DNA of 60,000 nt, filler included, from Hausera hauseri (taxonomy: Eukaryota): the NCBI GenBank assembly GCA_046269625.1. It is 13 parts of 13 records of this genome, joined end to end, with 100 filler letters (N's around TTAATTAATTAA, not from the genome) between each part and the next. Parts side by side here need not be neighbours in the genome. Positions count along the whole stretch, not along the records: positions 55,907 to 60,000 come from JBJURY010766095.1; 12 more parts are not named here. One strand, given 5' to 3'. The position numbers and the translations under genes are program-made. Positions 2,956 to 60,000 of the stretch are shown one piece after another. The notes below the pieces were generated by a model, which worked only from the letters and a program-made list of their open reading frames with translations, ran no database searches and was not told the DNA's origin. Position 1 is the stretch's first letter. The number at the start of each line of letters is the position of its first letter.

Positions 2956-2964
2956 AACAACAAA

Positions 2965-3330
2965 ATGATTGATTCCGAGATCGTTTCCATTCACAATAAA
3001 CCGCAGCAGGGCGGTAAACTGCCGTATTTCGTTGGTAAACAGTATGGCTCTGAATGGTTGCGTACATTGGCACGTTTAGCATTTCCGGTGTTGAAGCGTA
3101 TTGGAGCCGTGGCCGAAAAAACAGCACAGGACGTACTATATGAAAATAAATCGATTTTACCATCACTGAAGGAACACGCCTTGTCCGAAATAAAAAGCGC
3201 TGCATTGGGAGTCGTTGAATCAGTCAAAAAACAATTCGCTGGCAGTAGCTTAATGACGAGAAAACGCCATAGAACATCATCAAGTTTATCAGCCATAAAC
3301 AAACGTCGTCGTCGTACGATTTTCGATTAA
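2965..3330 (+). CDS. Polinton/adintovirus small basic core-like virion protein
   Basis: Intact 121-aa ORF between penton and major capsid. Has QQGGKLPYFVGKQYG Gly-rich motifs, an amphipathic WLRTLARLAFPVLKRIG segment and a basic tail (RKRHR...KRRRR). Confidence 0.7.
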   Translation: MIDSEIVSIHNKPQQGGKLPYFVGKQYGSEWLRTLARLAFPVLKRIGAVAEKTAQDVLYENKSILPSLKEHALSEIKSAALGVVESVKKQFAGSSLMTRKRHRTSSSLSAINKRRRRTIFD

Positions 3331-3334
3331 TTAA

Positions 3335-4547: not shown

Positions 4548-4583
4548 ATAAAATCCACTGTCTCACCTTTTCAGCGTCGTCGT

Positions 4584-7744: not shown

Positions 7745-8390
7745 TTATTGGGGATAGATTTGTTTGGACAGGTGTTGAGAATTGAGAAAAACTGTCAAAT
7801 TTAGATTCTTCAATTGCGTTATCTGGGTGACTGAATTGTCTAGAGGATTATTTGTACGATCGTGTTCGTCATTTGGCTGCGGCAATTTGTCAGTCAAAAC
7901 CGGTATATCAATTGAATTTCTTTTATCGTCGCTTTGCGTTTCCTCCATTATTTCGACGGGATTGCCAATGAACGTACCTCATGTACTTTCTGTTATTGGA
8001 TGAATATTAACTGTCGAAAGATTCAAAAATTCGTTCGTACAACTCGGTATTCGATTGATATTTTTCTTTTGATGGAACATCATCTGTAGTACTGATAAAA
8101 TAAACTGGGGAGATTTTAGGTGAAGAAATCAATTGTTAGATCGTTTTCAATAACAAGAACTCTTGGTAATAACTTTTAACTGCATCGATTTCGGCTTTCA
8201 TCTTTTTTTATTTTTTTAATCGATCTGAATTGCGCAGTTCTTGATAAGCTTTGTTCCATTTATTGATCAGAAACATTGTCATTGGAGATTTTGGGAATTT
8301 TGAATTAGATAGTATGAATTGCCATAGAACATTAGGAATTTTGAAACAGATTGTTGTATTGTTTTTCTTGAAAAGTTGGCTCTTCTACCT
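7745..8390 (-). pseudogene. Unidentified degenerate host-like coding fragment directly following an LTR head
   Basis: Broken minus-strand reading frames, including ORF 7745-7948. No family recognised. Confidence 0.35.
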
Positions 8391-8661
8391 GAATCCGCGG
8401 CACCACACTACCCCCCGTTACGGAAATGACACTTTATTAGAGAAAAGAAAGTTAGTAGACAGAGTAGTGGGGTGTAGAAGAACTTGACAGAAGCAAATTT
8501 TGATGTGATTGAAACAGAAACGTGGAAAGAATACGTTTTGTGAGCTATTGCATCTTAGTATGGACAAGGCGTTGAATTCTGTCGACATTCTGTTCTCTGC
8601 TGTATTTGCTAAAGGTAACAGTCTTACTCTTCTTACTGTGTTGTTTAATTACTTGTTGAGT
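8391..8661 (-). mobile_element. Gypsy family C 3' region: PPT plus 17-bp LTR head
   Basis: Aligns with 59322-59590. Minus strand reads ACGGGGGGTAG (PPT) then TGTGGTGCCGCGGATTC, then unrelated sequence. Confidence 0.8.
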
Positions 8662-9144: not shown

Positions 9145-9256
9145 ATATTCTTAAAGCGGGAGTCGGACCCGACTAACGATCCGACGCGGCGATATAGGAC
9201 GCCCGGTCGTGTCCAATCAAACGGGCCAAAGGACACCGGCCGCGGTGGGCACCACA
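9145..9256 (-). repeat. Gypsy family A 3' LTR head (about 112 bp), followed by unrelated host-like sequence (8762-9144)
   Basis: Minus strand: end of integrase ORF (9335), CGGGGATGA purine tract, then TGTGGTGCCCACCGCGGCC. Homologous to 2458-2570 and 20447-20559. Confidence 0.85.
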
Positions 9257-12200
9257 TCATCCCCGTGGCAAAGTGAAAACTATAAAGATCAAAATAGACG
9301 GAAAGAAAAAATCGCTAAACCAAAAGTGTCTGTGTCAACTGGTCTTAGTGTGAACAAGACGTTGGGTGCCTTCTACTAATTTGTCCCTGCTATACATGCT
9401 AAATGTAACTGCGTGTTTTGTTTGTATGCGATGTGTTTGCTTGTGGAGTATGGAGTTTGGGAAAAAATTGTCAGATTTTGTTGTGGGTGTTGTGTCGTGC
9501 AAAGACGAGTCAGGATGAAGCGAAGAAGAATGTGAAGGAGGAAGAGAGATTGGTGGAGACGGATGGTTAAAGGTATTTAAGAGAGTGTTAGAAGACAAAG
9601 GACTGACAAGAGGTGTAGTAGTGGATGAAGGAGAGACAGAAGTTGGAGTAGAAAGTGGAATTGTATTGGGCGAAAGAGTAGAAGTAGAAAATGAAACAGA
9701 AGGATTGGTAGAGACAGGAAGAGTGGTAGGGGTAGAAGGTGTGGAAAATGATGAAGCGGAACTAGGAACAGAAAGAGAAGGTGGAACAGGTGTAGCAACA
9801 GATATAGGAATATCAGGGAGTGTAGGAGTAAGAAAAGAGGTTGACGTGTCGATTGGTGAAATGTCGTCGACAAAGAAGGCGGGCTTCAAGTTTGTGATAT
9901 GCACCGTAAGTTCTTTGTCATCTTTAGAAATAATAGCGTTATGTGAATGCAGCTGTATCAGTTTATAGGGCCCAGATACCGCGGCTGAAAACCGCACGGC
10001 GTCTGATTTTTTAGCCATACGAATTTTGCCGAATACAAATCTTCGGGTAAATATGTTTTGTTTTTATGAAGTAACGTGCAAAACGAATATTTGCTGACCG
10101 TAACAAAGTGACTTTGTGCCGCCCGTATCATTTCGCCTGTAGGAGTGTCGTCTAGGGCAGTTACTTCGAATAGTGATCGTATAGGAGCTCCGAATAAGGC
10201 TTCAGTAGGTGAGCAGACGTAGTGTTCCGCCAGCTGAGCAGAACAAACGGAAGAAGATTTGTCCAACTAATGTTGGACTCTGCAAGAATTCTTAGTGACG
10301 TTTTCTATGTGCGGTGGAAGCGTTCTACAAGGCCATTCGATTGGGGGCGATAAGGCATAGTATGTATGTGTTGGATCCCTAAACGGTTAATGAGGGATTT
10401 GAACAGGTTGGATTCAAACTGTGAACCCTGGTCCGTGATGATTAAGCGAGGTGATCCAAACTTGCTAATCCATGTACGAATGAAAACATCAACTATGGTA
10501 TCGGTGTTCGTGCTCCACAGAGGGATGGCTTCTGGCCATCGCGAGGAACGGTCCATCATGGTGATGATGAATTGATGACCGTTGTTTGGAGGAAGAGAGC
10601 CAACGATGTCGATATGCACGGATTCGAAACGCGATGTGCAGGGGAAGTGGAACAGTGGTGGCTTTAGATGCTTAGTTGTTTTGTATTTTTGGCAAGCCAC
10701 GCACTCCTTAACCCATGCGTGCACATCAGAACGCATTGACGGCCAAATTACTTGTCGGTGGAGTAAACGAAAGATGGCTTTAGCACCAGGCTGATGTAGC
10801 GAATAAACACTGTTGAATGCTTGCCTTTGCAATGATGGTGCAATAATTATTACGAATGACATAGTTTGGAAGTGTCTAAAGCCACGCCGTCAAGGATTGT
10901 GCAAGACTTGAAAGAATTAAGCTTGTCCTGAGGTGGCTGGTTCTGTTGAAGTTGAGCTTGCGTAAAAATCGGTGAGAAATTAATCGAACTAACCGACCTA
11001 GATAAAAAGTCGGCAACCAAATTATTAACTCCGTTAATATGTTTTATGTCGAAGTTAAATATCGTCAATTATGATATCTGTCGTTCTTGGCGTGTGGAAG
11101 GATGTTTCATAGCCATGATGTTAAGTAAGGGTTTGTGATCGGTCTGTATGGTAAAATAGCGAGCGATAAGTAGGCGGGAGAAATGCTTTAAAGCGAGAAC
11201 GATGGCCAATAATTCTTGATCGAACGTTGAATATCTAGTTTCAGGGGTTGTTAGCTTACGAGAAAAAAATTCTGGTGGTTGATTTTCTCCTTTATAGATT
11301 TGGTGAAGCACAGCACCTACCGCAGTAGTTGAAGCGTCTCTGGTAAGGATAAGTTCCGTGTCAGGCTTGGGGAAAGCGTAAATGTCGACGGTCTTAATTC
11401 CTTCACGTAGCTTATCACGCTTATCAACCAATTCAAATGTCCACTGAATTGGCTGATGTTTTTTGACGCCGCTTTAGTGTGCAAATGGCGCTGTCAGTTC
11501 GGAACAATATGGTATATATTTATGTACAAAGTGTAGTGTACCAAGGAAGCTGCGCATTTCAGTGGTCGTATGTGGTAACTGGATATTCTTAAAAGCTTCA
11601 ACTCGGTCTGGTTTGGGAGTGGCCTGTGAAAATCTGTCATTTTGCCTCGGTCATGCCTTGACAATTTGATTGCGATTCAGCAACATTAAAAGGATAATTA
11701 AAATTCTATTTCACTTAAAATTTTACAATGATAGTAAATATGAATATTTAAACAAAACGAAATGACTATATAATTTTGTGTGCTATTGGGTGAATGTGGG
11801 CGCCACATGGCCGTCTGGTGAAATAACGTGGCCCAAAAAGTTGATGCGCTTTTTAAAGAAATGGAGTTTGTCAAAATTGACTCGGAGATTATGGTGTTTA
11901 AGGCGTTGGAATAGCGCGCCGAGGTGTTCATCGTATTGTTTGGCTGAAGACGAAACGACCAGAATATCATCAATGTAAGGGTGTGCAAACGGGAAATCTG
12001 ATAGAATTGATTCAGTATGTCGCTGAAAAGTTTGCGCGGCATTTCGCAAACCCAATGACAAACACATATTCGTAGAGACCAAAAGGAGTAGTGACAGCAG
12101 TCTTTTCTATGTCGTCGGGTGCCACCGGTATTTGGTGATATGCTTTGGCCAAATCGATGCTCGAGCAAATTGCGGTTAAATTAAGGCGATACAAGATATC

Positions 12201-15310: not shown

Positions 15311-15391
15311 TAAGTATAATAGTAACCGTAATAAATTACTTAATAATAGAACGACGACGAAGAAGAAAAGGTGAAACACAGCGGATTTTAT

Positions 15392-16628
15392 TTATACAAT
15401 GACAGTTCCGTTTTTCGTTATTTCAACCTCGGCATCAAATACACCGTAAATGTACATCACGGTAGATTGATCCAACGCTTTAGCAAAGTGAACTTCGAGT
15501 CGTAGGTTTCCCTGCTGAGGTATCTGCGTCTGCCCAATGTCATAGTCCGGAGCCAGAACAAAGGTAAAGAACGAGTAGGTGGACTTGAACAAATCCATCG
15601 ATACGCCATTGTTGACATTTTTGTTCAGCAAACCCATGTTGCGCAAGATAGATTGCATATATGTGCAAACAAAATCATTAGACTCAAAGTCTTGTTTGTA
15701 CCACTCCACGAAATCTTCATTCCGGCTCAAACTGATATAATTCACATTGATATGTGTAAATGTTTCCGAATCAGCAGTTTAACTGCCCGTTTGTTAAACA
15801 GTCGTTTGAAATGTAACGAGCACAAATTTCAGCAATCGCATATCGCCAAACAGAACGTCCTTGTAAAACGTTGTCGAACTTTTGGGTATGGTATAAAACA
15901 CGAGTTCTGTGCATTGTATCGGGTACCAGGCATTTTGTGTTTCCAAGCCCAATCGATGTCCCATGAGCACAGATTGTGCTACGTTTACTCAACGTACGTA
16001 TAATCGTGCCTCGGTAATTTTCAGTATGGGTTTGGGATTTTCCATGGCGGTTTTCTAACAAAAGACATTGTCGCTTCATTTGAGCCGAATCATGGCTTTA
16101 AAACGGGGCAGTAGGTATTTCGGCTGATCGAAAAAGTCAAAGTACAGCGGTCCACACAGTGTAAGCGACTTTCATTCTGCCACCCATGCCTGACGGTTTG
16201 CAGCTGTGGCACCGTATCCAATGGTTTTCGTCAAATGAGTCGTTTTCGTGTCTGCGCTGTAATTCAGAGCCGTTTCAATGAGTGTTTTCATACTGTATAG
16301 ACTGGTGCTGTCTTTAATTTTCACACTGTTCAGAGTCAGTAATGTCTCCTGGAACAGTGTGCGGAAAAATTAATTGGCCTGTGTGACAGTGTCTGTTGCA
16401 GCGAGAACCGTTAACGAATCCTTTTTAACAATGACTTTTGCATAGAGTAGCGTATCGTTGAAATCCAGGTATTCATTGTCCGATGCCATACTGTTGAATT
16501 GAATGTTGATGTGATCGTCCGTTGAAACCGAATCAACGGGGTAGATTTTCTCAAATGCCGCAATTGTCAATAACAACTTGTGGCGCCGCTTTGTCAAATA
16601 TGCACAAATCAGATTTTGCAGATGCCAT
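15392..16628 (-). pseudogene. Polinton/adintovirus major capsid protein, second copy, disrupted
   Basis: Collinear with 3335-4547 (MASAKSD...EYLDFNDTLLYAKV...QGNLRLEVHFAKAL...ITKNGTVIV), with different lesions. Confidence 0.88.
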
Positions 16629-16651
16629 TTGACTGTCTGTCAATCAATCAA

Positions 16652-17018
16652 TCAATCGCAAATCGTACGACGACGACGTTTGTTTATTGCTCATGAGCTC
16701 GATGATGCTCTACGGCGTTTTCTCATCTTCAAGTCACTGCCAGAAATTTGTTTTTTGACCGATTCAACGACTTCCCGTGCAGCGCTTTTTATTTTGGACA
16801 AGGCATGTTCCTTCAATGATGGCAAAAATCGATTTGTTTTCATATAGTACGGCCTGTGCCGTTTTTGCTGCTACGGCACCGATACGCTTCAACATCAGAA
16901 ATGCTAAGCGTGCCAATGTACACAACCATCCAGAGGCATACTGTGTACCAACGAAATACGGCAGTTCGCAGCCCTGCTGGGGTTTACTGTAAATGGAAAC
17001 GATTTCAGAATCAATCAT
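16652..17018 (-). pseudogene. Polinton small basic core-like protein, second copy, frameshifted
   Basis: MIDSEIVSIYSKPQQG..LPYFVGTQY; paralogous to 2965-3330. Confidence 0.75.
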
Positions 17019-17025
17019 ATTGTTG

Positions 17026-18110
17026 TTATTGGATTCGACGGAAATGAAGCGTTAGACTGGTTGTGGTACCGTACGGAAATCCAATAAGGTAGCCCGCATC
17101 ATATCGGATATTCACTTCAACATTGTTTGTAGATGTAGATGCCACGGGTAGGTACATTGGATTATCGAGCTTGACAGTTACATTTTCGCCGGCAGCATAC
17201 TTGCTGCTTTCCGGATAAATTGCTCGGAGTAGCGGTACGCGTACTCCACCGACCAAAATCGGTTCGGTGACGTTCATGTAAATGTACATTTGACTTAGTT
17301 CCGTTTTCAGTTTGGGTTTGAGTGTTGCAACATTTGCCACCGCCGCCCCTGTCTTCGTATATGGTGTCTCAAACCGCTGTTTTTCAAAACCCAATACCAT
17401 GGCCAAAGCTTTGTCCAATGAAATGTCGACAATATCCTTAACTAGTTCAAATTTAACGTACCCATCTGCATCTGACTCGAAAACTTTAAATATCGCCTTG
17501 TACTTTTTATTTGAAGAAGAAAAGTGTTGACAGAGCTGTGCTACAGATTCACAATAGACATTGTCTCCAGTCGATAGATATAACGTTGACCCCCTTCCTC
17601 TTGTATAGGTAAATTTCACCGTTGTCTGGTAATATACGGGTGTTAATCTTGGAGCAACTATATTTTTACTTTTAATAAAATTGCCTTTGTACTCTATATT
17701 TGTGAATCCAAATTTTTGCGCCATCTCAGTGGACTCAAATGCAACAGTAAATTCAAAATTTGCCATAAAACTAAGTTTTCCCATGAAATATAAACACCGA
17801 TTTTGCCGTGTGAACCGGAACCTGTTTCGGTCGTGCAAATGGCCGATTCTCCAACAGTTGTTTTATTGTTAGTAAGTGTCAGAGGATAAGAATGTGCTTT
17901 GGTTTCAGTAACAGGCTTGTTGTACGTTATTTTCATACTACCTTTCAATGAAACCGGTGTGTAGGAAAAGTTAAATTCCGTCACTGCAACCTCCCACTTT
18001 CCAGCAGATAAATCCAACGGATTGTTCCGATCTACAACGTTTCAACTAGCGAAATTGCTCGGACGAGTCGTCGGACAACTGTTGCTCGGCAACACTACGT
18101 AAACACTCAT
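17026..18110 (-). pseudogene. Polinton/adintovirus minor capsid (penton, PX), full length, disrupted
   Basis: Starts MSVYVVLPSNSCP...LDLSAGKWEVAVTEF (LPSN and G.WEV motifs); ends MYIYMNVTEPILVGGVRVPLLRAI...TSLTLHFRRIQ. Confidence 0.88.
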
Positions 18111-20446: not shown

Positions 20447-20559
20447 TGTGGTGCCCACAACGGCCAGTGCCCTTTGGCCCATTTGGTTGGACACGGCCGA
20501 GCGTCAGTTGCCGCCGCGTCGGGCCTATACTCGGGCCCGATCATCCGACTCGAGGATTC
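20447..20559 (+). repeat. Gypsy family A LTR 5' head (113 bp) inserted antisense into a family A pol
   Basis: TGTGGTGCCCACAACGGCC...CCGACTCGAGGATTC. The TG end abuts mid-pol sequence at 20446. Confidence 0.87.
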
Positions 20560-30900: not shown

Positions 30901-31434
30901 AGTGAAGCGATACCAACTGTGCCAAAACAGAAACGACCAGTTGGTAGGCCAAGGAAAATAAAAGATGAAGCTGACCATAACGCAACTCTAATCCAAGAAC
31001 TAAGACAATTATCAATGCCAGCGATTAATTCAGATAGTGCTGAGAAACCTTATACAAATAGTGAATTATTCAGGATCAAGGAATGACATATTAAATGAAA
31101 AAGAGAGGGTAATATATGATGCTGCAAGAATAATGAGAACATCCCGATTCAAGATGAATAAAAGTACCTTACCCGATGAAGTTTTAATTGAGAAAATTAT
31201 GGTAGAGAATACTAAGGAAGATTTAAGGAAAGTAATATTGTACTTGGTTATAAAAACAAGTCCCTTGCGGGACAATGAATTCAATAGAACCATTGGATTG
31301 ATCAGAAAAGCTGCTAGGAAAATACCTAGAGAAATAAATTGGTTCAAACTATTTGATGATGAAGATTAAAATAAGCCAATATGTGGTAAGAAATTTAATA
31401 TCAACTAACTCGGTACGAGATAGCGAATCGAATT
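27908..31434 (+). mobile_element. Degenerate long polyprotein region of a large env-bearing element (coiled coil, ubiquitin-like domain, AT-hook, possible F-box-like motif)
   Basis: Continuous A-rich plus-strand coding bias with stops and frameshifts. UBL-like 30561-30785 (IRVK...TSVREIK...RLYFRGRIL...DVGI); KRPVGRPRK near 30930; LPDEVLIEKI near 31168. Confidence 0.55.
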
Positions 31435-31884
31435 GGATGATTAAACTAATAACGCTTACGATGTTAGTAAGACAACTTGGTGCAATCACGGTATATGACT
31501 GTGATAAGTTTAAAATAGGTCAAAAATATTCCCTGATGGATCTGGAACTATGCGAGGATGCCAGACCTCCTAAGTTAGTAACCATCGAGAAAAAGTATTT
31601 TCTGCATCAGCAACGCGAACTAATCGCAATAGACGAAATAGAGTGCATGTTGCAACGATTGCGAAGTATTTTTCACTGTGGAAATATTCACGGACATTCA
31701 TCGATAGTAAAACCAGCGACTCCATTAATTCATATGGATTTAGATCGACAACAGTGTAAACAAGCCAAAGAAACCGGAAGATTGAGATGGGATGGGATGA
31801 AGTTAGAAGGCCAACCAGGAAATATAATTCGAGCATATAAAGTAGCAGTTGTGAAACTAGATATGCACAACGGATACTATAACG
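31435..31884 (+). CDS. N-terminus of a chuvirus/Mononegavirales-like fusion glycoprotein (env-like), truncated by the gap
   Basis: Signal-like MIKLITLTMLVRQLGA, then ITVYDC...YSLMDLELC...EC...FHCG...H.S...C. Same cysteine pattern as 48750-49217. Confidence 0.75.
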
Positions 31885-31984: not shown

Positions 31985-33621
31985 GAAAGAGTGATTGCAT
32001 ACGGATCACACGGAATGAATAATCACGAAAAGGGCTATTGCATTACATGGAAGGAGTTGCTGGCTATGTATTACTTCTGTCAGCATTTAATCATTACTTT
32101 TATGGGAGCAGCTTTACACTGAGAACGGACCTTCATGTTGAAAACAAAAGAGCAGACAACAGCACAATTCCAAACCTGGATAAACTAGTTATCAAGTTTA
32201 GACATAAGAATAGAACAGAGGAAAGGAACAGATCATGCAAACGCAGACATGTTATCCCGAACCAATTGCGGCACATGCAGCCAATGCATGTTAATTCACG
32301 AAGAGACCAAAAGCTATATCAAGACTCGGAGGATAAACACAGTTGAATCGACAGAAGAATATCTATATCAAAGAGACAGCAAAGAAATTGAAGAAATAAA
32401 AGAAGACACCTCAAAGACAGAGCATTGGAAATTAATAGTAGAAAATGGCATAGTAAAGACAAGAACAGAGAAAATATGGATACCAAAGGATAAGAAGGAA
32501 AAAATGATAAAGCAATGTCACGACATGCTATCCCACGCGGGAATAGAAAAAGTAACAAAATACATAAGCAATAACTACGATATGACAAACATGAAAGACA
32601 CCGTCAAGAAAGTGATTGGACGCTGTAAGGCATGTCAACGAAACAAGACCGTGATAACAGATACGAAGGAAGAGACCCTAAGACTCTCCTCAAACGAACC
32701 ATTCGAGAAAATATACATTGATATTTGCGGACCATTAAAAGAAACCTGAAGGAAGAAAAATATGTATTGGCCGTCATAGACCAGTTTAGCAGATATATAT
32801 CATTATCGGCTATAGCAAAACATGACAAAGTAACAATAAAAGACACGGTGCTAAAGACATGGATTTACAAATTCGGTGCACCGAAAGAGATACACATGGA
32901 TTGCGGAAAAACATTTGAATCGAACGTATTTAGAGACATGACGGCGTCAAAGGGCATCAAGATGTGTTATTCGAGCCCGTATCATAACAACACCAATGGC
33001 ATAGTGGAAAGGCAATTCCCGACAATTAGAGAATATATAGGTGCGACTCTCCACGATCAACGACGAACAGATTGGGAAGAGATATTATCAGAGATAGAAT
33101 TCGCGTTAAACGCGACAGTTTAGAAAATAACAGGAAGAGCCCAGCAGAAATAATATTTGGAAGAAAAATACATAGAGAGATGGCATGGACAGAATAAAAC
33201 AATAGAATCAACAAAGAGCAACGACCCAGAAAGGGTACCAGTAAAAGAGTATTCCAGGTCGGAGAAAGTGTACTAATACAGAAAGAATCAGGAGCAAAAG
33301 TTAAAGACAAATATTAAGGGTCATACGAAGTCATCGAGAGAAAACACGATCGATGATATGTACTGCAACACGCGGACAGCAGAATTCTAGAAAGAAATGT
33401 GGAAAAACGGCAGAAATTCTTAAAGGAGGATGATGTGATGAGAAATTGAAACGGATATTAATGTTTAAATTTAATTCAAAGTTAATTCAATAAACAACCA
33501 ACAGAAAGTCAGGAAATTCAGAAAAGAAGGAAAATAAACTTTTATAATAAATCTCTTATGGATAATTCTATCTTACAATCATTAAGTGAGGTTAAGGTCG
33601 GGACGGTAGAAACGCGATCTA
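31985..33621 (+). mobile_element. Gypsy family B RNase H end, integrase, PPT and 3'-truncated LTR (from 33434)
   Basis: FTLRTD, HDMLSHAG...CKAC, YIDICGP, IDQFSRY, DCGKTF and NGIVER. Purine tract AAAGGAGGATGA then TGTGATGAG. Confidence 0.92.
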
Positions 33622-42229: not shown

Positions 42230-44760
42230 TGAGCAACATAATTTTTATGCATCTGCTTCGCAGTATTCTGCCTCGCATTATGCTGCTGGATCTAGTGCAG
42301 CACCTGCGAAGCATATTAGAAAATTAAAACGCGCATCATGCGCAGCAGCATCAGGCGCAGCCACATCAGACGTAGCGGTTCTATCAAAAAGCCAAAGACA
42401 GCGGCTAGTTGATGCGGCAGCATGAAAGAGAAAATGCCGCAGATATGTTATTGAGGCAACTGGTTAAACAACCCTCCAAGTCTTCCTCTTATACACAAAG
42501 GAAGAGACAGAGGGTATTCTTCAGGACAAAATGTCTGAGCTCAAATCCCTTAAGGTGAATATGAAACTGGAGGCTACATACATCAATGTTGATGGCGAAG
42601 AATCCAATAGGGCCTTCAAGACCAAAAATAGACCCATATTAGAAAACACCAATATAGCAGAATAGATGCAAGAGGCGCACGAGAAGCTGATCCATGAGGC
42701 TGAGGAGAGCCAGGATACGAAGAGCGGATGGACTGTGGCAACCATCAAGAGATTTCTTATCTATGTGCACAAGTACTCTCCAATGAGTGACAGTTCTTAT
42801 ATTCAGCTTCCGGAATGGATCGTAAGGAAAAAGGCATGCATCAATGTCCCTAAATATGACAACAAGCGTTTCATGTATGCCATTCTATCAAAACTCGTAC
42901 GGGATCAACATAATGCTGCACGAGTTTGGCTATATAAGAATGTGCAGCACAACTATGACTTTCAATGTATTAAGTTCCCACCATCCATAGATAAAGTCAA
43001 AAAATTCGGACGACTCAACAAAATATCAATCAAGATCATTGGATTGGATGAGGCAGACAAATTCTATCCCCTACAGATATGCGATGTTGAATTGGAAGAC
43101 CATAGGGATCTGCTCCTACTAGATGATGGAGAAAAGGAACATTATGTTTGAATTAAGAACTTTAAATATCTACTTAGATCCCAAATTACGAAACATTAGG
43201 GACAAATAGAAATATGTAAGCGATGCCTGTCTCATTTCAGTGGCGATGCAGCAGTGGACAAGCTTGCAGAGCACAAGATGTACTGAAACAACAATTACTG
43301 TGTAAGGCCAGAATTTCTCAAGTAGGACTATATTGAATTCAAGGAGTTCGAGAAGAAGCTAAAGGTCCCAATAGTTATCTATTGCGACTTTGAAGCGATC
43401 CTGCGTCCAGTTCACAGCTGTACTTCCAGTCTTCAACATATCAGCACAAAGGTGTACCAATGTCATGAACTCTCATCGTATTGCATGTATGCCAAAGGAT
43501 TGGACAGTGAACCATTTCTATTTAGAGGTCCAGGTGCAGCAGCACATTTCATGAAGAGACTTGAAGACATGGCTCATAAACTTGAAAACATGCTTCAGCA
43601 GCATAAGGATACAATAAGCATGTCGAGGAAACAAGAAGATGAATGGCGTAAGGCAACAAGTTACTTGTGCGACAAGTTCTTCACCAAGGAATATTATAAA
43701 GTCAAGGATCATTGTCATTTTACAGGTGCATATAGAGGAGCAGCATGCAATAACTGCAATCTGCGTTGCAAAACATGTCATATGTGCCTGTAGTGTTCTA
43801 CAATCTCATTGGCTATGATTTCCATTTCATAGGCCGAGAATTAGGCAACATTGAAGGAAACATTGAGGTGATCCCTAATAGTGAGGAGAAGTACGTCACT
43901 TTTACCAAGCATGTTGGGAAAATCCGACTTCGCTTCATAGACAACTTTCGTTTCATATCGTCTTCACTGGATAGTTTAATGAAGAACCTCCCTGCAGAAG
44001 AACTCAAGGAGACAAAGCGATTCTTCATTACTACCTTTGACCTGGTTAAAAAAAAAGGAGTGTTTCCCTATGACTATATAACCTCATGGAAAACACTGTA
44101 TGAGGCCTCATTGCCGGACAAGAAGAACTTTTACAATATCCTCTCTGATTGCAATATCAGAGATGCTGAATACCAGCATGCTCTGAACGTCTGGAATGTA
44201 TTCCAATGCCGAACATTAGGAAAATATAGTAATATATATCTTCAAATTGATGTACTGCTGCTGACAGATGTCTTTGAGAGTTTCAGGGATGTCAAAATGA
44301 AGAGCCATGCGTTGAATCCCGCTCATTTCTTTGCGGTTCCAGGGATGAGTTGGGCAGCAATGCTGCGCTATACTGGTATTAGAATGCAAATCATTAACGT
44401 ATTACGATATGATCCCTATGATCGAGAGAGGCATTAGAGTCAGAATATGCCAGGCCATTCACTGATATAGTGAGGCCAACAACGAGTATATGGCCCAGTA
44501 TGATCCATCCCAGGCACCGTCATATACATCATATCTGGATGCCAACAACTTGTATGGTTGGGCAATGAGCACCCATTGCCATATGATAACTTCAAATGGG
44601 TCGAGAATCCTGAAAACATCCCCATATTGGACCTAGACCTCACTGAAGATACGGGATACATATTGGAGGCAGATATGGAATATCCGGCTTCTATCCACTC
44701 AAGGCATCAACAGCTACCTTTCCTCCCTGAGAGCAGGCCTCCGCCCCAATTTCTGCATTG
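42230..44760 (+). pseudogene. Second, unrelated Polinton protein-primed PolB, disrupted and truncated before motif B
   Basis: KSGW, SYIQLP...KKACINV...DNK.F.YAIL, HYV*IKN, VIYCDFEAIL, KDHCHFTGAYRGAACNNCNL, KKGVFPYDY, DVLLLTDVFE and YLDANNLYG. Confidence 0.93.
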
Positions 44761-48293: not shown

Positions 48294-48700
48294 ATGAATG
48301 TGCCAAAAGTAACGTTAACAACTCACGAACTTTTGGAACAACTAATCAAGAAAGTTAACCCGAAACAACTTAAGAAGATACCTACAAATACAACAATTCC
48401 ATTACAATCAGTAATAAAAACGGCTAGAAATTTTTCATCACAGAATAAAAGATTATTACGAAAATACGAATTGAAAGGTGGATTGAATAAAGCATTAACA
48501 CGATTGTTAAAAGATTGTGACCAAAATTGATTATTAATGGCATTAGGATGTATAGTAGTTAGTTTTAAAAACCAAACTGAGGTTGACACCAAGTTACACC
48601 ATATGGTAAATGATTTAGCTTACCACATGGATAGATTAACTAAAGATTGGGTAATAAAATACGGTGGTTGGAACGAAATACTCCAGAAATTTGACTCCAC
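48294..48700 (+). pseudogene. Bcl-2-like domain within the polyprotein (one in-frame TGA)
   Basis: BH2-like RLTKDWVIKYGGWNEILQKF. The upstream in-frame RLLKDCDQN*LLMALG is BH1-like if TGA 48528-48530 was TGG. Confidence 0.62.
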
Positions 48701-48749
48701 TACATTAATATATCCCAAGGATACAAATATCTCAGAATGGGTAGTACAA

Positions 48750-50463
48750 ATTATCCATTTGTTACCATACTTTATAGCCGTAAGTAGTTTAAAAACCGTG
48801 AAAGCATTAGAAGCCTATGACTGCTCCAGACCAGAAGTAACAGCCATATTTTCACTAGTAGATACAGGTACGTGTCAAAATGCAAATCCGATATCAGTCA
48901 AGAAGGAAGGTCCTTACAATTATAACTTATATCAAAGAAGTAGTTTTCAACAAGTGCAAGTAAAGGAATGCCAGGTTAATAAAGTAATATTTGCCTATAA
49001 CTGTGGTCATAATTCATGGAATTCAATAACTATCCCACCAGGATTACCCAGACCGGTAACGATTACTGATGAAGATTGTAAAAAAGCCACAGATTCAATT
49101 CATATAGAATTAAAACAACCGGTACAAGCAGGTGTACGAAAACGAGCTCATGCACGAATAGTTACAGCCGGAAAAATATGGCCCGGATATGGAGGAGGTT
49201 GTGATGGGGAAAAATGATGATAAATGGACAAAAAGAATCTTCTGTAGTGCAAATAGAAGATTTCACGGTCACCTTAAAGGAATATAAAGTAAATTTTGAT
49301 GCAATAACAGGAAAAATGTTAACAGCGCCATCTTGTAAATATTCTAATGGAGTATATACCTTGGGAGAATTTATATTAGTTTAGGAAAAAACAGCTATGA
49401 TATGTCCACTAGCTTTTCTTAAACAAGTATATATGTATGAAATACATGGTGATTTGTATTACGATGATGAATATCAAGAACCCGTACATAACAATAACAA
49501 GTCTACCCGATCCGCGATCCTTACAGCAGACAACTTCTTTAAAATTTTTAATGTCATCTAATGACAGAGATGGAATAGTATTGGCGCGAAAAGGAGCAGT
49601 ATCAACTTGTGGATCAAACGCCGTCTATTCTACGTCATATGATGACCTTTTTGTAACAAAAGAAACTTTAAAGAATACAGGAAAGTTACCAACCTAAGAC
49701 GTAAAGTTGTATTTATACACGAATAACAAGATAGATTATATTTATTATACCGCGAAAATGGATTTGGTTGAGATGTATAACATGATGGTGATAAGAGATT
49801 GTAAAATCACTCAAAAATTAAATCAACATGATTTAATACTGGCAAGAAAATTTCTTGAACATATTGCTATAATCATGGGATATAGTCACGGAACATTTGG
49901 TAGAGTACAAGGCGAAATACTCCATGTATACCCATGTCCACCGATAAAAGTAACGCCTGTAACATCTTCAAGAGCAAATTGCACGATTGAACTTATGATT
50001 CAGTATAATGATAAAAATACGATTAAATTTGGATATTTGGACCCCATTTCTAGGAAGTTGTTGTTACCAACCGAAATTACCTTTGCACCTTGTTATAAAT
50101 ACTTCTATCCAGCTTTCAAACTCAGTGAGGAAAAATGGACTAAAAAAACACGTCCTTCAACTATGATGAATATGACACAGATAATTGGATTATTACCACT
50201 AGACAAGGGTATGAAATTCAAAGTAAATATAGAACTTCGCACTAGCGGATTATATTGATTAACTGATTTAGAAGCAGTAAGGAAACAAGTACTATTTCAA
50301 AATATCCGAGAAAAGGTAATAACAGAATTTGTATACATTGTTACAAAAGGATTAGGTGGAACACCCAATTATGGAATGTTAATTCCAGTTGATCATTTGA
50401 AGAAAACAGCTAAGAAAATTCTTTATGACTTTTGGAATAAATTTCTTATTTTTGGTCAAGTTA
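48750..50463 (+). pseudogene. Chuvirus/Mononegavirales-like fusion glycoprotein (env-like), disrupted, truncated by the gap
   Basis: Signal-like IIHLLPYFIAVSSLKTVKA then LEAYDC...FSLVDTGTC...EC...YNCG. Later GTFGRVQGEILHVYPC..I.V...CTIEL...YLDPISRKL...PC, SGLY..TDLE and FWNKFLIFG. Confidence 0.82.
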
Positions 50464-51193: not shown

Positions 51194-53045
51194 ATGGTTG
51201 AATGTCGAAATGAGAGACCCGCACGACACGGCTTTTCCATCTTTGGAAATTTCACAAAAGCCGGAAAATAGTCAAATGTCAATTCCGTTCTCCAATTACT
51301 TTGCCAAAATGAGTTTAGTTTATTCAAAAAAATATGCAACATCCAGTCAGACAATCACAACCACATTCGCAATACCATTTGACGAAAGAAATTCATTGAA
51401 CCGGATGCCGTTGCGTCAAATTCACTGAAACGAAATTTAACAGAAATCTGCTCCAGTTGGGCAGTTCGTGTGGAAAGTCACATAGCACCGGATCAGAGTT
51501 TGAGAATTTTCATCATTGGTGAAAAACAATCGACATTAGATGCGAAAAAACGTGTATTGCGATTGCTTCAGACACAGAATGAAATCAGTTTGGATATTCC
51601 AAAAGAATTTCACAAAAGCCTCATTGGAGCCAAAGGAGCAACATTGAAAGACTTGGAAAATGAGTCAAGCACGCAGATTCTTATTCCGAAGCCAAATGAA
51701 AATTCCAATATTATTCGTATACGAGGTCCCAAAGGCGGTGTTGAACATGCAAAACAATTAATTCAAAAGCTTGTGGATGAAATGTTAAAAATTGGTCAAC
51801 AGGTAGTTGAAATTGACAAGAGGTATCACCAGTTGGTATGCCACAAGAATAATTCAAGTCTTTATGTTGTGATTGAGCGAACGAACCTTCGTCTCGATAT
51901 TCCTCCCTTCTCTGTAAATAAAAATGAGATCTCAATTTCAGGTGATATAGGTGTCACTCAAGCTGCCAGTATTTTAAAACAGACATATAATATGATGCGA
52001 GCAAATAATCAGGAATTGCAAATTGAAATCCCAAAAGAAAAGCATCGCTTTGTTATTGGTCCGAAAGGAAGTGGGATTAAAGAGATCTTGGATAGCACAA
52101 ATGTTTGGGTCGAAATAAATGACAATAAACTCTCAGATGCTTCTCCAAATACAATTTGTCTTTTGGGACCAAAGGAAAACCTGGGACCGTCTCTTACAAT
52201 GGTTTTCATGAAATCGGAAAGCATCAATATTATAACTGTTGATGCACCTGGGTCGCTTCACAAGTATATTATTGGTAAAAATGGGTCAAATTTGGAAGAA
52301 CTAACAGGATAAAGTTAATGTTCATTTGAGTTTTGAAACGGAAACCAATCAAATTATAATTGAAGGAGCACCAGAAGAGGTTGAAGTAGTAGCGGAGAAA
52401 TTGAAAAAGAAAGTATTCGACTTTCAGACATATTTAACTCAGATACAACTTGAAATTCATCCTGTTCATATTAAAAATGTCATCGGTACGGGTGGATCAA
52501 ATATTCAGAAACTCAGAAAGGAAACAAATTGCAGTATTCGATTCTTCATGGACCCAACAAACAGATTTGTAACAATTGTTGGAAGTCCAGCAGAAGTGGA
52601 AGTCTCTAAAGCATCTCTGTTGAAAACTGCAGAGCACATCGAAAATACGAAACGTAAAGTTGTCATTCTCACACACTATTTGATTCCACAGCTGATTGGT
52701 CAGAATGGTAAAGGATTAAAAGAAATCAAAGAAAAATATCCAGAAGTCCGCTTTACAATTCCATCACCAGAAGCAAAAATAGATTTAATCACTTTACTAG
52801 GTCCCCGTAAAGATGCGGATTCTGTTGCTCTCATTCTTCAGAAAAAGCATAATGGTTGAGTCCAATTACTCAGAAAAAATCATTATACCTCGAAAATATC
52901 ACAAAGTCATTATCGGTAGAGAAGGAATAACAATCAAAGATTTAACTAAAACAACAAATACAAAGTTTCAAATTCCTCATCCGAATGATGAAAAGGATGA
53001 AATTATTATCACAGGGAAAAAATCCGACGTTCAAAATGCCATTCA
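51194..53045 (+). pseudogene. HDLBP: Intronless, disrupted 5' half of vigilin (multi-KH domain protein)
   Basis: Tandem KH GxxG repeats HKSLIGAKG, HRFVIGPKG, HKYIIGKNG, NVIGTGG, LIGQNG and HKVIIGREG. N-terminal AFPSL and ITTTFAIPFDER as in vigilin. Frameshifts; similarity ends abruptly. Confidence 0.9.
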
Positions 53046-54341
53046 TAAAGATCAGCTACTTGTAGCTATTCGCGGAAAAACGCCCGATGGAGAATCTCTG
53101 AATAGTAAAACTATTTTAGAAATGACTTTGGAACTGAAAGATGACTCTAGTAGGATAGTTGTTCACACTACTGCACCTTGTTTCGTACCGAAAGTTTATA
53201 CAAAAATTATAACTTACATGTCTATTTATTGCAATAAAACGCTTTCGACGTATAGTGAAAGACAGTCGTTCAAAAACACCAACGACACTATTGATCGATT
53301 CAACAATTTAGAATCGGCGTATCTACTCAGTATACTTCACATTCAAGAGAATCGATCAGTTTTGGCCACTGCAGTATTCCAAAGGTCACAACTCAAATCC
53401 GGACATATCACCCGTAAGACGACGCGGTTGACCTGCAAAGACACCTATGTGCAATCCCCACCACTGGTCATGGAGAAATCTATACACTATCAAGTGAGAT
53501 ATTTTTTATACATTTTTTATCCATGATATTTTTTATCCATTTTTCCCCTACTACCTTGCCCATTATTTTGCTGGCACAACATAGCTTTCTCGTAGTTTTG
53601 TAAGTAGGGAAATATCTCAATCTTATTTACATAGACGCAACAGTAGTTTCGGACTTGTTGTATATTCATATAAGCGTTTAGCCCATACCATTCGTTGTAA
53701 GATATCCAACTACGTGTTCACGACCCTTTTTAGATCATTTTAAGACCATATTCCGATCCCTAAGATTCATCGAAAACAAACCAGTTAATGATTACAGTAC
53801 CCCTTTTACATTGTGTCTACTGTTTGTTATTTGTCGAAATCAAGTTGTCAGTGAAAAGCTACTTCTGCTATGTGGTTTCACTTCCAAATCTCAATCTACC
53901 GCTTGTCATAATCGAATGCTGACGGAACAGATTATAAACTTACTTAACTATTCCGTAAAAGTTAGGAATTTAATTGTAACAAACGGTCACATCAAAATTA
54001 TATTTAATAATAATCCGTCGAATAGTAAACAATTTAACGAAGTTTTCAGTTTTTCTTTACGAGATTTTGTATGCGATTTAATAAACATTACATCGTGGGA
54101 AAATTGGGATTATTCAAATAGATGGTATTCATCATTTTACATTGGTCCATGTTGGCAGCATTACCTTTCCTCTTTAATTACCATTCCACCCGTTTTTGGT
54201 CGTCTCGAATATTTGACTTACAACTTTTATCCAGTAAAGGCGTCCCTTGGAGACAGATATTGCTATTATTCTGACAGGACTCCTACCACCTTTGGAATTC
54301 TAAATAATTTCAGCAAAATACTTCTTTGTTTTAATCCTTAG

Positions 54342-55806
54342 GTGATAAACTTCGTCTATCCTATTCAACCGTTGCTTCACTTTATCCTTTGTCCACAACA
54401 TAACTTTTCGGGATACCTTGCACTCGCAAGAATTCGCAAACTTGACGACGGCCACATAAAAATTAAGGAAGTGGTCCAGGCACTTCATTCTTTTGAGTTG
54501 AAAACAAACCATAGCATGATAAATCAATCAACCTTCCGTACTACATCAATAAGTGCCACGCCATGGTGTGTTTTTTCACTACACCAACAACTAGAGTTTA
54601 CACCGACTATACCTTTTTCATTCTTTCTAAACAATCACCATTTACTGACGCATAGAATGACAAATTCGATAGATGCATCCTACCTACACAACTACGTACT
54701 ACACGTCGCCAACCTCTTCGATTTTTATCTTACGTACAATAATCTTCCAATAACTAACACCAATCTCAATAGCGTTTCTGTACCTTCAACCCATTGCATC
54801 ATCATTCACATACACATTTGCTTACATCGTGGAATGGAATCATCACCTACCATTAACACTACTGACCGAAATACCTCCAAAACATCACATTTTGAGTTCA
54901 ACCAAAAATCGTCGATCGTTACCACGCCATCGTCTTTCAGTAGTTATGCTTCTACAGTCTCGCCAGTCAAACACACTTCTCAATGCACAGAGTATTTTAT
55001 TGACCACAACAGTCTAACAAAACATGGCTTAGCTTCCACAAAGTCTGGTTGTAATCAAACAATATCACTGATCCGGTAACTAAGGCCTATAACCTGCTTT
55101 GTCTTTTACCAACAACTGTAAAAACGGCCATTCATGATTTGCTCCATATCTTCTAGAATCCTGATCCATACACGCATCTTTACAACTCCGTTTTGAAACT
55201 TACGGAACCATCTATGGACTCAATAATTCACCGTTTCTTCAACGACAATGCAATGGGGGAGCAAAAACTATCTGATTTCCTAAGAACTTCACTCGTGCAA
55301 TTTCAAACACTTGGCGTGACCAAACAACATAACGCTGATTTTCTGCGACGCTACTTCTTGAATGCATTGCCCATACAAATTAAGGCCTTACTTACTGTCG
55401 TTGAAGATTTGACGACTCTTGATCAATTGTCCGAACTGGAGGACAAAACATATGAGGTTTTGAACGCACACACTCAACCAATCATTTCTGTAGCAGTTAC
55501 TACCAACAATGTTTCACTCGAACAGCAGTTAAACGAATTACGCGCCAAAAATGCGGCACTCCATCACACCATCAACTCTATCAATGATAAATTGAATAAT
55601 CTTTCTTTACAGTGTCGTAATGTGCCTTTGTCTAACTGAACACGTTCTCCCTTCAGAAATCGAACATCTTCACCCACGAGGTCGCTTGTATGCTATTATT
55701 ACACCAAATTTAGTAACAACGCAAATAAGTGTTGCTTAGGTTGTAAATATTATTCGCCAAATCTAGATTCAAGTAATATAATTTGCGTCTATCATTCAAA
55801 ATTCGG
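54342..55806 (+). mobile_element. Ty3/Gypsy gag region, degenerate
   Basis: NITDPVTKAYNLLCLLP, MGEQKLSDFLR...FLNALPIQIK.LL...LDQLSEL.DK, a coiled coil, then CYYYTKF...A.KC...C knuckle-like motifs. The 5' boundary is uncertain. Confidence 0.72.
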
Positions 55807-55906: not shown

Positions 55907-56485
55907 AGGGAGCGCAGGCCTGCAGCTGTGGCGCTCAGAGCCTCCACAGCTGTGGCGGAGGGAGGAGGTGTCAGCCATGCTTGGCACTCCTCGCCGAGTC
56001 AGCTGGGAATGGCTGGCTTCCCTTCACACGAGCGTCAGAACACATGATGCACTGCTGGAGACGCACGGAGCACCGTGTGGCGCAGCGAAACACTTCTAAA
56101 ATCATCTGACAGATTTGCAGCAAAAAAAGGCAAAATCCAATCTTTTCGGGGCAGCTGCCAACATCAATCTCAGCCGATGACGACACGTGGAATAACTCAT
56201 ATATACAAAGATTATTTGTGACAGCTCAATAAGCAGAGGTTTGTTTATTTGGAGGCTAATTAGCAGACCGCCGGCTTTTGCATTCGGCCAGCTAGCCGGT
56301 CGCCATGGCGAAAGTCTGAGAGGGGGCAGTTGACCACATTCAGGAAGTCACCCAGAATCCACAGACGGAGAGGGTCTACTCAAAGAACGTCTCTCCACCG
56401 CTGACTCCAGGGTCCTCCAGCATCTCTGTGCGAGGCCCCGCCCTCCCAGGATGCGCGGTGACTCCTGACATTTCGGTCCTCCTGC
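55907..56485. other. GC-rich non-coding segment compositionally foreign to the rest of the window
   Basis: Abrupt change from AT-rich MTR4 sequence to GC-rich, vertebrate-like sequence near 56485, with no gap. Confidence 0.55.
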
Positions 56486-56489
56486 ATCA

Positions 56490-58436
56490 GAATAAGTTTG
56501 GATTTGTTTTTGTTTTTCTTCCTTTATCTTATAGTTTTGTAATACTTCTGGAAAGTTTCTTAGTTTAAGTAGTTCATGGCTATCTAGCAGTGGGAAATCT
56601 TCAACTATGGAAAAATTCAGAATTAGAATCTCACTTAGAGAACAAATGCTTGCAAATTTTAGTGATACTACTTCAGCAGATGCGGCTTCGTCCGGTCGAG
56701 GTGGTCTTATAAGGGCTTTTTTATTGTCATTGGGCATGGCAGCTACTGCCAATAAACACTCAACCAAATAAAATGTATATTCGGGTGCTGAATTAGGAAA
56801 TTTTGGCAGCGGTGGTTGTTGTCGTCTTATATTGACGACTGCATCCCAAACGAAATCATCATTTTCACGTTTGACTTTAATTAATTGTCCCGGTTGTAGA
56901 AAATTTACAAGTCTGGTGGATTTTTGAATGTTATCCATTTCTTTATCATAAGCCAGTTGAAGTGCTTCATTCAACTCATGATGCAAAGAAACGATTTCTT
57001 CATGTTCAATATGGATTTTTATAAAATCTTCGCTTAATAGTTTCAATTGTTCTTCTGCTTCGGGTATAAAAGCCTGATTTTGGAATTGAAACAAAAAACT
57101 TCTCTCAATCATGTATTCTGGATTGATACCTTCAACTTTCATCAAATTGAGAAGCGTATTGTACGTAATATGAAAAGCGGAATTCAAAGGATCTGGGCTG
57201 CCTTGAATAATATGTCGAGCACCCGATTCATTCATTGTTTTATCGACCATAAAAATAATTGTACCTCACATCTTTACCTCTCTGACCAGCCCTACCTGAC
57301 ATTTGAATATGGTCATTGGCAGAGATCTAGCGATATTCGAATCCATCGAACTTTCTTGCGGTAGTAAACAAAACAGTCTTTGCCGGCATATTAAGACCCT
57401 TAGCAAAGGTTTCGGTTGCAAAAAGACACTTCAATAAACCTTCAGAGATCAGGATTTCAACAGTTTCCTTTAATATTCGCAAAAAACTGCCATGATGTTC
57501 ACCAATTTCTTTGTGTAAAAGTGGAAGCAGTGTAATGACCTGTGGTAACTCCTTATCGACATCAGAAAGGCATTCTATTGAGTTTTTGAAAACTTCGTCA
57601 ACAAAAGCAGTTTCTTGTTCGGAGTTAAAATTCAGTTTAGACAACTGCATTGCATAAAGCTCACATTCCTTCTTACTGAAGGAAAATACAATCGACGGCT
57701 CTAATCTATGTTCCATAATTAATCGGACAATTTTAAAAACATTCGATTCGTTCTTCAATGATCGTGCCGCCATCAATAAGCCGGTACGTTTACTACTGCT
57801 ACTCTCGGAGTTAGGACCAAATTTACTCATAACTGCTTTAAAATTATCATCGAGAAAGTTACCCTTGTCGTCGATAACTAACAATAAACCATCGCCATCA
57901 CCAGGGAAAATGTAATGATGCAATATATCCGCACGAAATTTCGTGAACACAACATGACAAAGTTGACTATGGAGAAAAGAAACCCATTCGGTAAACTGTC
58001 GAGCATTCGGAATAGTTGCACTGAGGGATGTATGACCAACTTCTCGCATAATCGAACTTCCTCTGTGCAACATAGACTGTAAAATTTCTGTTGTCATAAT
58101 TAAGACACTCGCATTCGGAGATAATGTAACATCGCCAGTGAGTAATTCCATTTCGAAAAATTCATCCGAAAATTCCCGATACTTTTGGTTACTGAGGACT
58201 TTATTGAATGTTGTAATAACTTGTTGTTTGTCACCCAATGCTTTGGCTATTGCATATTCTGCCATTGCAGTTCTTTTAGCTGATGTATGATCTGAAACTA
58301 AGGCCTACTGACGATTTTCAATGCGTAAAATTGCCGCTTTTTGAAAACTATCTGATTTAAACTTAAACGTCTTCAAAGGTGGTTGAATTGATTCTTTCAA
58401 ACCTTCATACTCCACTGTTGGAGGGTATGACACCAT
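56490..58436 (-). pseudogene. MTREX: Intronless, deleted and disrupted MTR4/SKIV2L2 RNA helicase fragment
   Basis: FQK.AI..IEN.Q..LVSDHTSAKRTAMAEYAIA (dead Walker A), TGDVT...IMTTEIL, LSATIPNARQF, IVFSFSKKECE, LFATETFA.GLNMPAKTVLFT and DPLNSAFHITYN.LLNL. The DEIH motif II segment is deleted. Confidence 0.93.
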
Positions 58437-59308
58437 TATTAAATCCATTAAGAAAATGTTGAAAACTAATAACGAAACGCTAATTTCAAAACGAAGTTTA
58501 GTGTATTTCTCTATTCAAATTCAAAAAACAAATTTGTCAATATCTTATTGATCAACGTAAGTACCATAATCTATGATCATTATGTTAAAGTCAGACTGTT
58601 TGATTGTTTATTTGTGGGTCTGGAATAGAATATACCTTCAAGACATCGTCCTTAATCCAGATATTGATTTTATACTGAGTAAAATTATAATTGTGATAGG
58701 CCACATATTTGATGGATAGTTTTATTTTGGTAGAACAACTATGAATATTCGATCAAAACTTTTATTGACCTATCGGTTGACCTGTCTTTGAACCGTCTAT
58801 TATCGATTATTGTTAACTTGTCGAAACATTGTGTGGCCAATCTGTAACAGGAATACACGTTTCAGATTGTTGTGGTCTTGATGGAACATTCCAGCGCGAC
58901 GAGAAAAACCAATAAAAACACATGTATTCATAGGCAATTACTAACAAAAGAGAACAAATTAGGAAATAATAACAATGTATGTATAAACTCCAACTGTTAG
59001 GCAGAATTGTTGGTCACAAATAAGTTGCTATTACTGTCTATCAAACCATCAGTTCAATTATTCATATTCAGTGACTTCCTTTTTTGGAAATCACTTGTTA
59101 CTCCTCGGCACATTCTGATTTTCGACGATTTGATGGTGGAAATGGAAACAACAGTAGTGTTTCGGACAAATTCAAATCGGAAGGATTTTCGACGTATTCT
59201 GTTACATTGTTATGAGATGTTGAATACTCAATGGTTCCAACTTTGGTTGTATCTCATCAAATTTTATACAGTTTAATTTTTCTTTTATGTAATTTGTTCT
59301 GAGTAGAT

Positions 59309-59338
59309 TGTGGTGACGCCAGAATCCGCGGCACCACA
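59309..59338 (-). repeat. 30-bp mini-LTR with 7-bp terminal inverted repeats
   Basis: Minus strand TGTGGTGCCGCGGATTCTGGCGTCACCACA, directly after the purine tract ACGGGGGCAG. Confidence 0.78.
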
Positions 59339-60000
59339 CTGCCCCCGTTATAAAATGACACTGTTGGGGCGAAAGCAGAAAGATAAAGCAGTGAGGTGTA
59401 GACGAACTATTGAAAGAAGCAAGTTTTTGATATGATTGAAACAGAAACGTGGAAAGATTACGTTTTGTGAGCTGTTGCATCTTTGTATGGACAAGGCGTT
59501 GAATTTTGTCGGCATTCTGTTCTCTCCTATATTTGCTGAAGGTAACCGTCTTATGTTTCTTACTGTGTTAATTGATTGCTTGCTGAGTTGGTTGGGAAAA
59601 AATTAAACTTTGATTTGATGTGTCAGCAGCTTGAGAACTGATCGGTATAGCGTTTGGTGTAATGTTTTGAGTTAATGCAGGCTTTGGAGTAGCAGGTTGT
59701 CGTGCAGGTAAAATTGGAGAAGAATTGAAAGAATCAAGAAAGTTTTGTGTGGATTGGGTGTATCATCGACGAAGAATGCTGGTTTTACGTTATTTATGTG
59801 TACGTTTTCCTCTTTATCGTTTTTGAGTATGGTAACTGTGTGTGAACTTAGGTTGAGGACTTTAAGTGGTTCTAAATAGTTTGGTTGGAATCCTGTAGGT
59901 GAAGGGTTTTTATCCAAACGAAGTTTGCGTTGAATAATGAATCAGGTAAGTATGTTTTGTCTCCATGTACTATTTTGCAGAAAGAATCCTGGCTTAACTG
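59339..60000 (-). mobile_element. Gypsy family C integrase C-terminus and 3' UTR
   Basis: GFQPNYLEPLKV...VHINNVKPAFFVDD is homologous to family A GFQPRYLGPYK...VHITNLKPAFFVDD. The 3' UTR matches 8408-8661. Confidence 0.88.

Follow-up and report, generated by a model that had tools for sequence, protein, structure and literature searches.

The closest described systems with which the sequence treated here can be compared are LTR retrotransposons of the CsRn1 clade (CsRn1, PwRn1, AgCR1-14). The LTRs of CsRn1-type elements are described as 146-407 bp long (PMC2582038), and the mean for the clade is 330 bp in an HMM training set. The integrase is specific for the outermost 8-15 bp, and R regions as short as 10, 11 and 21 bp are known (PMC3601003). 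LTRs of 85 bp have been described for SMART elements (PMC3281118) and a median LTR of 72 bp for the sugar-beet element TRIM-01 (bioRxiv 10.64898/2026.03.01.708851), and unusually short LTRs are also mentioned in PMC3286476. Concerning host sequences, in LTR-mediated retrocopies of animals both LTRs are intact and a host piece stands in place of the reading frames inside them, 25 of 29 joints showing microsimilarity (Tan et al., 2016; PMC5131818), and the Cassandra, Helenus and Ajax TRIMs contain one fixed 5S rRNA or tRNA piece in the LTR, which is used as promoter (PMC10886601). No LTR near 30 bp was found in the literature covered, which excludes subscription journals, Repbase and supplementary length tables, and the probable LTR length of 30 bp is less than half of the shortest found there (the 72-bp median).

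Here we describe a sequence of 30 bp (the 30-mer) from Hausera hauseri, with which, judged by sequence, a decayed retrotransposon of the Ty3/Gypsy type ends. With somewhat more confidence than doubt we consider the 30-mer, a candidate 3' LTR, to be the whole LTR of its family, cut down to two integrase-attachment ends. By its LTR end motifs the element would be of CsRn1 type, a putative member of that clade. It resembles the CsRn1 clade in these motifs and in a polypurine tract lying directly against the LTR (PMC2582038; PMC3601003), as well as in the PR-RT-RH-IN order of close relatives and in a Pol that is nearer to that of a CHCC-Gag element. It differs from the described members of the clade in an LTR of 30 instead of 146-407 bp, in perfect inverted ends of 7 instead of 3 bp and in having no room for a U3 promoter or polyadenylation words. 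With SMART and TRIM-01 it shares a very short TGT...ACA LTR beside a polypurine tract, but those are non-coding plant elements, whereas the present family is animal, encodes Pol and has an LTR less than half as long; a class defined by lack of coding capacity and a whole element below about 1 kb does not accommodate an element with a Pol remnant. As in the retrocopies of Tan et al., for which template switching is the likely route (PMC5131818), intron-free, partial and sometimes chimeric host pieces lie by LTR-element sequence, among them an intron-free part of an MTR4 gene. However, in no case has a host piece taken the place of internal ORFs flanked by a pair of LTRs; the pieces sit at or behind the 3' LTR. 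Finally, host-derived sequence within the LTR is what Cassandra, Helenus and Ajax have to offer as a parallel (PMC10886601), but the host pieces neighbouring the 30-mer vary, and no credible RNA-family match was obtained near it in Rfam (3 hits, E 2.4-3.6).

Material

The window, that is the whole stretch of DNA that was analysed (60,000 nucleotides including fillers; assembly GCA_046269625.1), consists of 13 contigs of 4-5 kb each, joined by N-linkers, which contain many broken mobile elements and host-gene pieces. Its genes are of animal type (the MTR4 piece has 48-57% identity to MTR4 proteins, at least 120 of which were listed). For comparison across the family the public run X1 was used, in which a fraction of 0.60 of the sampled words of the contig bearing the 30-mer is present and which may be the window's own source. 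At 80% likeness 1,234 X1 contigs could be placed on 58900-60000. Depth in X1 is a sum across overlapping contigs and not a copy number, and contigs are not equivalent to loci.

Several features of the window stand apart from the 30-mer. Two copies of one region (2572-4583 and 15354-17412) are 85% identical over 2,065 bp and have no Pfam match; we take them to resemble a Polinton capsid-gene region. A piece of a type-B DNA polymerase lies at 43754-44437. Pieces matching the Pfam family Monjiviricetes_fusion, a viral fusion glycoprotein, are found on two contigs (31338-31883 and 48531-50258, plus strand), and Gypsy-type integrase pieces (32189-33123) lie on the next contig after a fusion-glycoprotein piece.

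The 30-mer and the element that it ends

The features of this locus are the following, all but the first on the minus strand.

55907-60000, the contig bearing the 30-mer, last in the window
56627-58433, minus, dead MTR4 helicase copy that lacks its 3' part and, through a deletion, 31 aa, and is broken by in-frame stops and a frameshift
59309-59338, minus, candidate 3' LTR of 30 bp, TG...CA, hairpin, placed by adjacency to the polypurine tract, end motifs and a depth step at the outer edge
59309-59321, minus, tail of the 30-mer, 13 bp
59322-59338, minus, head of the 30-mer, 17 bp, matched exactly in a sister copy
59339-59351, minus, polypurine tract adjoining the LTR
59352-59480, minus, short 3' UTR of about 130 bp, Pol homology stopping at 59481
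59481-60000, minus, broken C-terminal Gypsy Pol (integrase tail region), cut off by the end of the window, beyond which the copy has its integrase core

The 30-mer occurs once in the window. It starts directly after the polypurine tract, has TG...CA ends and is bounded by the perfect 7-bp inverted repeat TGTGGTG/CACCACA, as LTRs with their short inverted repeats are. A sequence-only reading of the window had proposed such a unit at 59309-59348; the unit stands at 59309-59338, and the last 10 bases of the longer interval belong to the polypurine tract. The 30-mer can form a hairpin of 10 pairs with -8.6 kcal/mol (z -2.70; 3 of 200 shuffles were equally good). What it does not contain is a U3-R-U5 arrangement with internal promoter and polyadenylation words, there being no TATA, AATAAA or ATTAAA inside it. 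The same reading had seen in it a minimal two-ended integrase-attachment unit, and this idea is supported by the CsRN1 integrase motifs TGTGGYG and MSYYAMA: the ends of the 30-mer agree with the first in all 7 letters and with the second in 6 of 7 (PMC3601003).

How easily could such an arrangement arise by chance? Inverted 7-bp pairs of this kind are common, with 18 in the window against a shuffle mean of 12.8. A pair behind a G-rich tract is found once, against a shuffle mean of 0.1, and 10 of 100 shuffles contain one. The 30-mer is lifted beyond chance by the placement of the LTR start through homology and by the depth step in X1.

The Pol end of the 30-mer copy has 63-66% identity over 53-62 aa to the intact Gypsy Pol proteins P0121 and P0122, whose domains follow in the order RVT_1, RT_RNaseH, H2C2, rve, so that the element has, via this homology, the RT-RNase H-integrase order of Ty3/Gypsy. 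A HMMER search with the Pol piece gave 7 hits, 2 of which are Gypsy Pol, and a word-indexed protein search with the same piece recovered none of 62 candidates. In pairwise comparison the Pol of the family is 35-37% identical to that of the CHCC-Gag element, represented by the single CHCC-bearing protein P0152, and 26-27% identical to a chromovirus-like one. A decayed CsRn1-type Gag of the CX2HX9CX3C kind (55025-55806, plus) lies on a different contig from the 30-mer and has no established link to its family. This Gag has two CHCC-like motifs and follows 1.5 kb after broken vigilin-like KH-repeat pieces (51383-53526, plus), and at 53459 CACCAC followed by TGG could be a decayed LTR end with primer site, as a weak match.

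Concerning priming, neither tRNA genes nor the tRNA-Trp primer site of the CsRn1 clade were found in the window; the 5' end of the element lies outside it. The contig stops 660 bp upstream of the 30-mer, and within the window neither a 5' LTR of the element nor the 4-bp target duplication that is typical of the clade was seen. With the CsRn1-type primer site printed in PMC2582038 the complement of the tail agrees in 9 of the first 10 letters, and the head in 7 of 10. Going by these letters a 5' LTR might pair with its own primer site, a lead to be set beside the 7 of 10 that the head reaches by symmetry.

Sharing of the 30-mer across the family

The summed X1 depth is 77 at 59270-59306, 3,711 at 59307-59343 and 1,679 at 59344-59380, the outward bin thus having 2% of the depth over the 30-mer. 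It amounts to 4,049.8 both at 59324 in the head and at 59321, the first base of the tail and base 18 of the 30-mer. At 59321 one common letter, different from that of the window, accounts for 87% of the depth in 70 contigs. Since unrelated inserts after base 17 would be expected to scatter and not to agree at this position, head and tail are normally joined, and the same agreement makes a one-off deletion unlikely; at most 13% of the depth at base 18 is attributable to copies that resemble the sister copy described below. Depth over the tail is deduced from the bin mean and not listed per base: it would be 4,068 with a head depth of about 4,050, 2,880 with 5,000 and 380 with 7,000, and nil only if head depth exceeded 7,000, a figure almost double those given for both sides. 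With tail depth so deduced, the repeat is common to the copies of the family, which part ways where it ends outward, as expected for an LTR. In addition, one X1 contig of 383 nt crosses flank, 30-mer and polypurine tract with zero differences.

Many sequences of the family hence have the head joined to the tail and lack the flank of the 30-mer copy. In X1 the joined form is thus the usual one and no rare empty form, and long conventional LTRs in other copies, which would have made it a one-off internal deletion, did not turn up among the placed X1 contigs. The LTR length of the family is probably 30 bp. To be considered in reading these depths is that the bins of the element body are deeper (6,550-65,070) than the LTR bin, that divergent ends may have escaped placement at 80% and that X1 contigs are too short to reveal a distant tail.

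The flank and the possibility of a longer LTR

Behind the 30-mer and on the same strand, the MTR4 piece starts at a distance of 875 bp and runs over about 630 aa with no intron; the parent MTR4 gene presumably has introns. The DExH box lies in a block of 31 residues that is missing from the piece cleanly and in frame, and this block could be an exon skipped in the copied mRNA. With a dead, intron-free host piece within 900 bp on the same strand, the 30-mer copy is not a clean example of the cargo-free form for which it had been taken. The 875 bp in between gave no match, and no second tail was found in the 3.4 kb from the 30-mer to the contig end, the best candidate, within MTR4, having 3 mismatches in 13. 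The X1 contigs include a further version of the flank, diverged and attached to the last 8 bases of the tail; the tail may have been amplified along with the flank. X1 depth is also raised at 58900-59047 (39-173, against 12-21 nearby), a part of the flank itself being repeated.

Outside the genome, the 30-mer pattern gave 0 hits in metagenome contigs, and no loci related to the integrase or to P0122 were found in viral and prokaryotic collections. The head pattern had 4 hits in viral contigs (IMG/VR, 22-105 kb), none of which matches the Gypsy proteins of the window, and they were taken as chance. A generic pattern of a purine tract followed by a short TG...CA sequence was found at 69 metagenome loci, one of which (L011) matches the window's Gypsy proteins and contains a similar TG...CACCACA 40-mer, which seems to lie inside a longer LTR of about 215 bp. 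L011, a circularly assembled Gypsy element, also has an 11-base self-complementary pair (within 414-640; offsets 148 and 217, counted from where the LTR starts), as would presumably be expected of self-priming elements.

Could the 30-mer then be the fixed hairpin start of a longer, compound LTR, the rest of which is filled by read-through or host DNA, here ending in MTR4, with a true right end that lies further on or has decayed? The position and orientation of the MTR4 piece would suit such an LTR, as would the diverged flank copy joined to the tail, the raised depth within the flank and the internal CACCACA of L011; moreover, a variable filling would produce the same depth step. However, the perfect inverted repeat, the CA and the CsRN1 3' motif all fall exactly where sharing ends, and neither a second tail up to the contig end nor any match before MTR4 is there to mark the filling. 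We regard a compound LTR as unlikely, but as the strongest of the competing explanations.

The sister copy and related LTR heads

A second copy of the family and a related family are present on other contigs.

8388-8407, minus, LTR remnant of the sister copy, 17-20 bases, without tail
8408-8661, minus, polypurine tract, 3' UTR and Pol end of the sister copy, cut by the contig end
4690-7385, minus, open frame of 898 aa, a PTPN23-type Bro1 front part joined to unrelated sequence, on the same strand 1 kb behind the sister head
9163-9257, minus, LTR head of about 100 bp of the related family, after a purine-rich tract, without CACCACA end
20447-20553, plus, LTR head of about 100 bp of the related family
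2464-2570, minus, LTR head of about 100 bp of the related family

The sister copy (8388-8661) is 82% identical to the 30-mer copy over 279 bp, and in both copies the LTR starts exactly at the polypurine tract. That it retains the first 17 bp of the 30-mer exactly, as previously noted, is correct for these 17 bases; the break itself falls anywhere from 17 to 20, as one mismatch is followed by two matches and contigs differ at base 18. The sequence after the sister head shows no relation to the flank of the 30-mer copy (30 of 200 shuffles score equally). Bases 31-60 of the two copies agree at 15 of 30 positions (P about 0.10), a likeness that was rejected, and the AATAAA that precedes the LTR of the sister copy by 25 bases is missing in the 30-mer copy and does not count as a conserved signal. 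The DNA behind the sister head had also been called host-like. Its first kb has no significant match in Pfam or PDB, and the description fits the PTPN23-type piece 1 kb further on. In the 898-aa frame the Bro1 part corresponds approximately to residues 32-200 of the human domain, and the other about 690 residues have no Pfam match. This chimeric frame is still open, whereas most neighbouring pieces are broken.

In the related family the three heads break off after about 95-108 bases; none has the CACCACA end and different DNA lies behind each. They are GC-rich, and one of them splits a gene whose copy at 15354-18110 is uninterrupted; one lies against the RNase H/integrase region of its own family, in opposite orientation to it. 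Among the DNA behind all five LTR heads of the window no convincing likeness was found (10 pairs, the best of which reached 4 of 200 shuffles). A head with varying DNA behind it is thus a genuine pattern in the window; a unit of head, cargo and tail of the 30-mer family was not seen.

It could be imagined from these breaks that the LTR of the family consists of the 17-bp head and the 13-bp tail with host cargo regularly between them, the 30-mer being the empty form, as the sequence-only reading had it. The break of the sister copy at 17-20, the PTPN23-type piece on the same strand 1 kb later and the breaks of the three related heads are what such an insertion of cargo would leave. Yet in the single such copy no tail follows the head in 3.7 kb, where the best match has 4 mismatches in 13, the first kb behind that head has no significant match in Pfam or PDB, and sister-like copies supply at most the small share of depth at base 18 given above. 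Insertion between head and tail therefore finds no confirmation here, and cargo as the regular content of the LTR appears improbable.

Still less probable is that an ordinary LTR of 150-400 bp has lost its middle in the 30-mer copy or in a few duplicates, the working LTR of the family being conventional. The lengths described for CsRn1-type LTRs, the decay of the 30-mer copy and the chance that divergent ends are absent from the placed set would all allow for such a loss, but the 70 contigs that run from head to tail all differ from the 30-mer copy at the same base and lack its flank, and the DNA behind the sister head is unrelated to that flank. An assembly artefact or a chance palindrome, for which the frequency of inverted 7-bp pairs and the composition of the window from 13 short contigs could be cited, is very improbable given the X1 contig that crosses the junction without a difference, the many contigs over the 30-mer and the exact start at the polypurine tract in two copies.

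How a 30-bp LTR could function

If, as we favour, the 30-mer is the entire LTR, how could the element be transcribed and copied? As the 30-mer has neither TATA nor AATAAA, transcription would start and end by signals outside the LTR, starting from an internal promoter or from one of the neighbouring host DNA and ending at a signal beyond the repeat. The element RNA would have at least 10 bases of the 30-mer at both ends, comparable to the known R regions of 10-21 bases, so that the ends of the 30-mer would double as homology for strand transfer. For its jump, reverse transcriptase would use the short repeat as a bridge, the ends of the DNA would be set by the primer and the polypurine tract, and integrase would hold 8-15 bases at each end. 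Thirty base pairs would then amount to two integrase grips with enough overlap for strand transfer.

Such an arrangement might also have a cost. A strong-stop DNA no longer than 30 bases, together with a self-paired landing site, could, more speculatively, lead to an occasional mis-jump onto a packaged host mRNA, followed by return to the 3' end of the element RNA, as in the template-switch model of PMC5131818. A mis-jump of this kind would fix the joint at the R end, perhaps at bases 17-20, and would create copies with a head and a host piece like that at 8388-8407. Breakage of the same kind is seen in the related family with LTR heads of about 100 bp and hence does not depend on a tiny LTR. 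Taken in full, the picture would be that of an autonomous animal Gypsy lineage with a 30-bp LTR comprising only the two integrase ends, a theoretical floor, with promoter and polyadenylation outside the LTR and a self-paired transfer site that causes jumps to host mRNA and LTRs rebuilt around pieces of host genes at a fixed joint; this fuller picture is put forward tentatively and as one that may well not hold in all its parts.

Implications

LTR finders usually have a minimum-length setting of 100 bp. Elements with LTRs of 30 bp would escape finders with such a setting and may be undercounted. If host mRNA were captured at the LTR, genes could be shuffled by one more route, a link at which we arrive by inference only. 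If the family moves in the way proposed, promoter, terminator and a long R would be dispensable parts of an LTR, and the family would provide a natural test both of the minimum that an LTR needs and of the origin of LTRs from short inverted ends.
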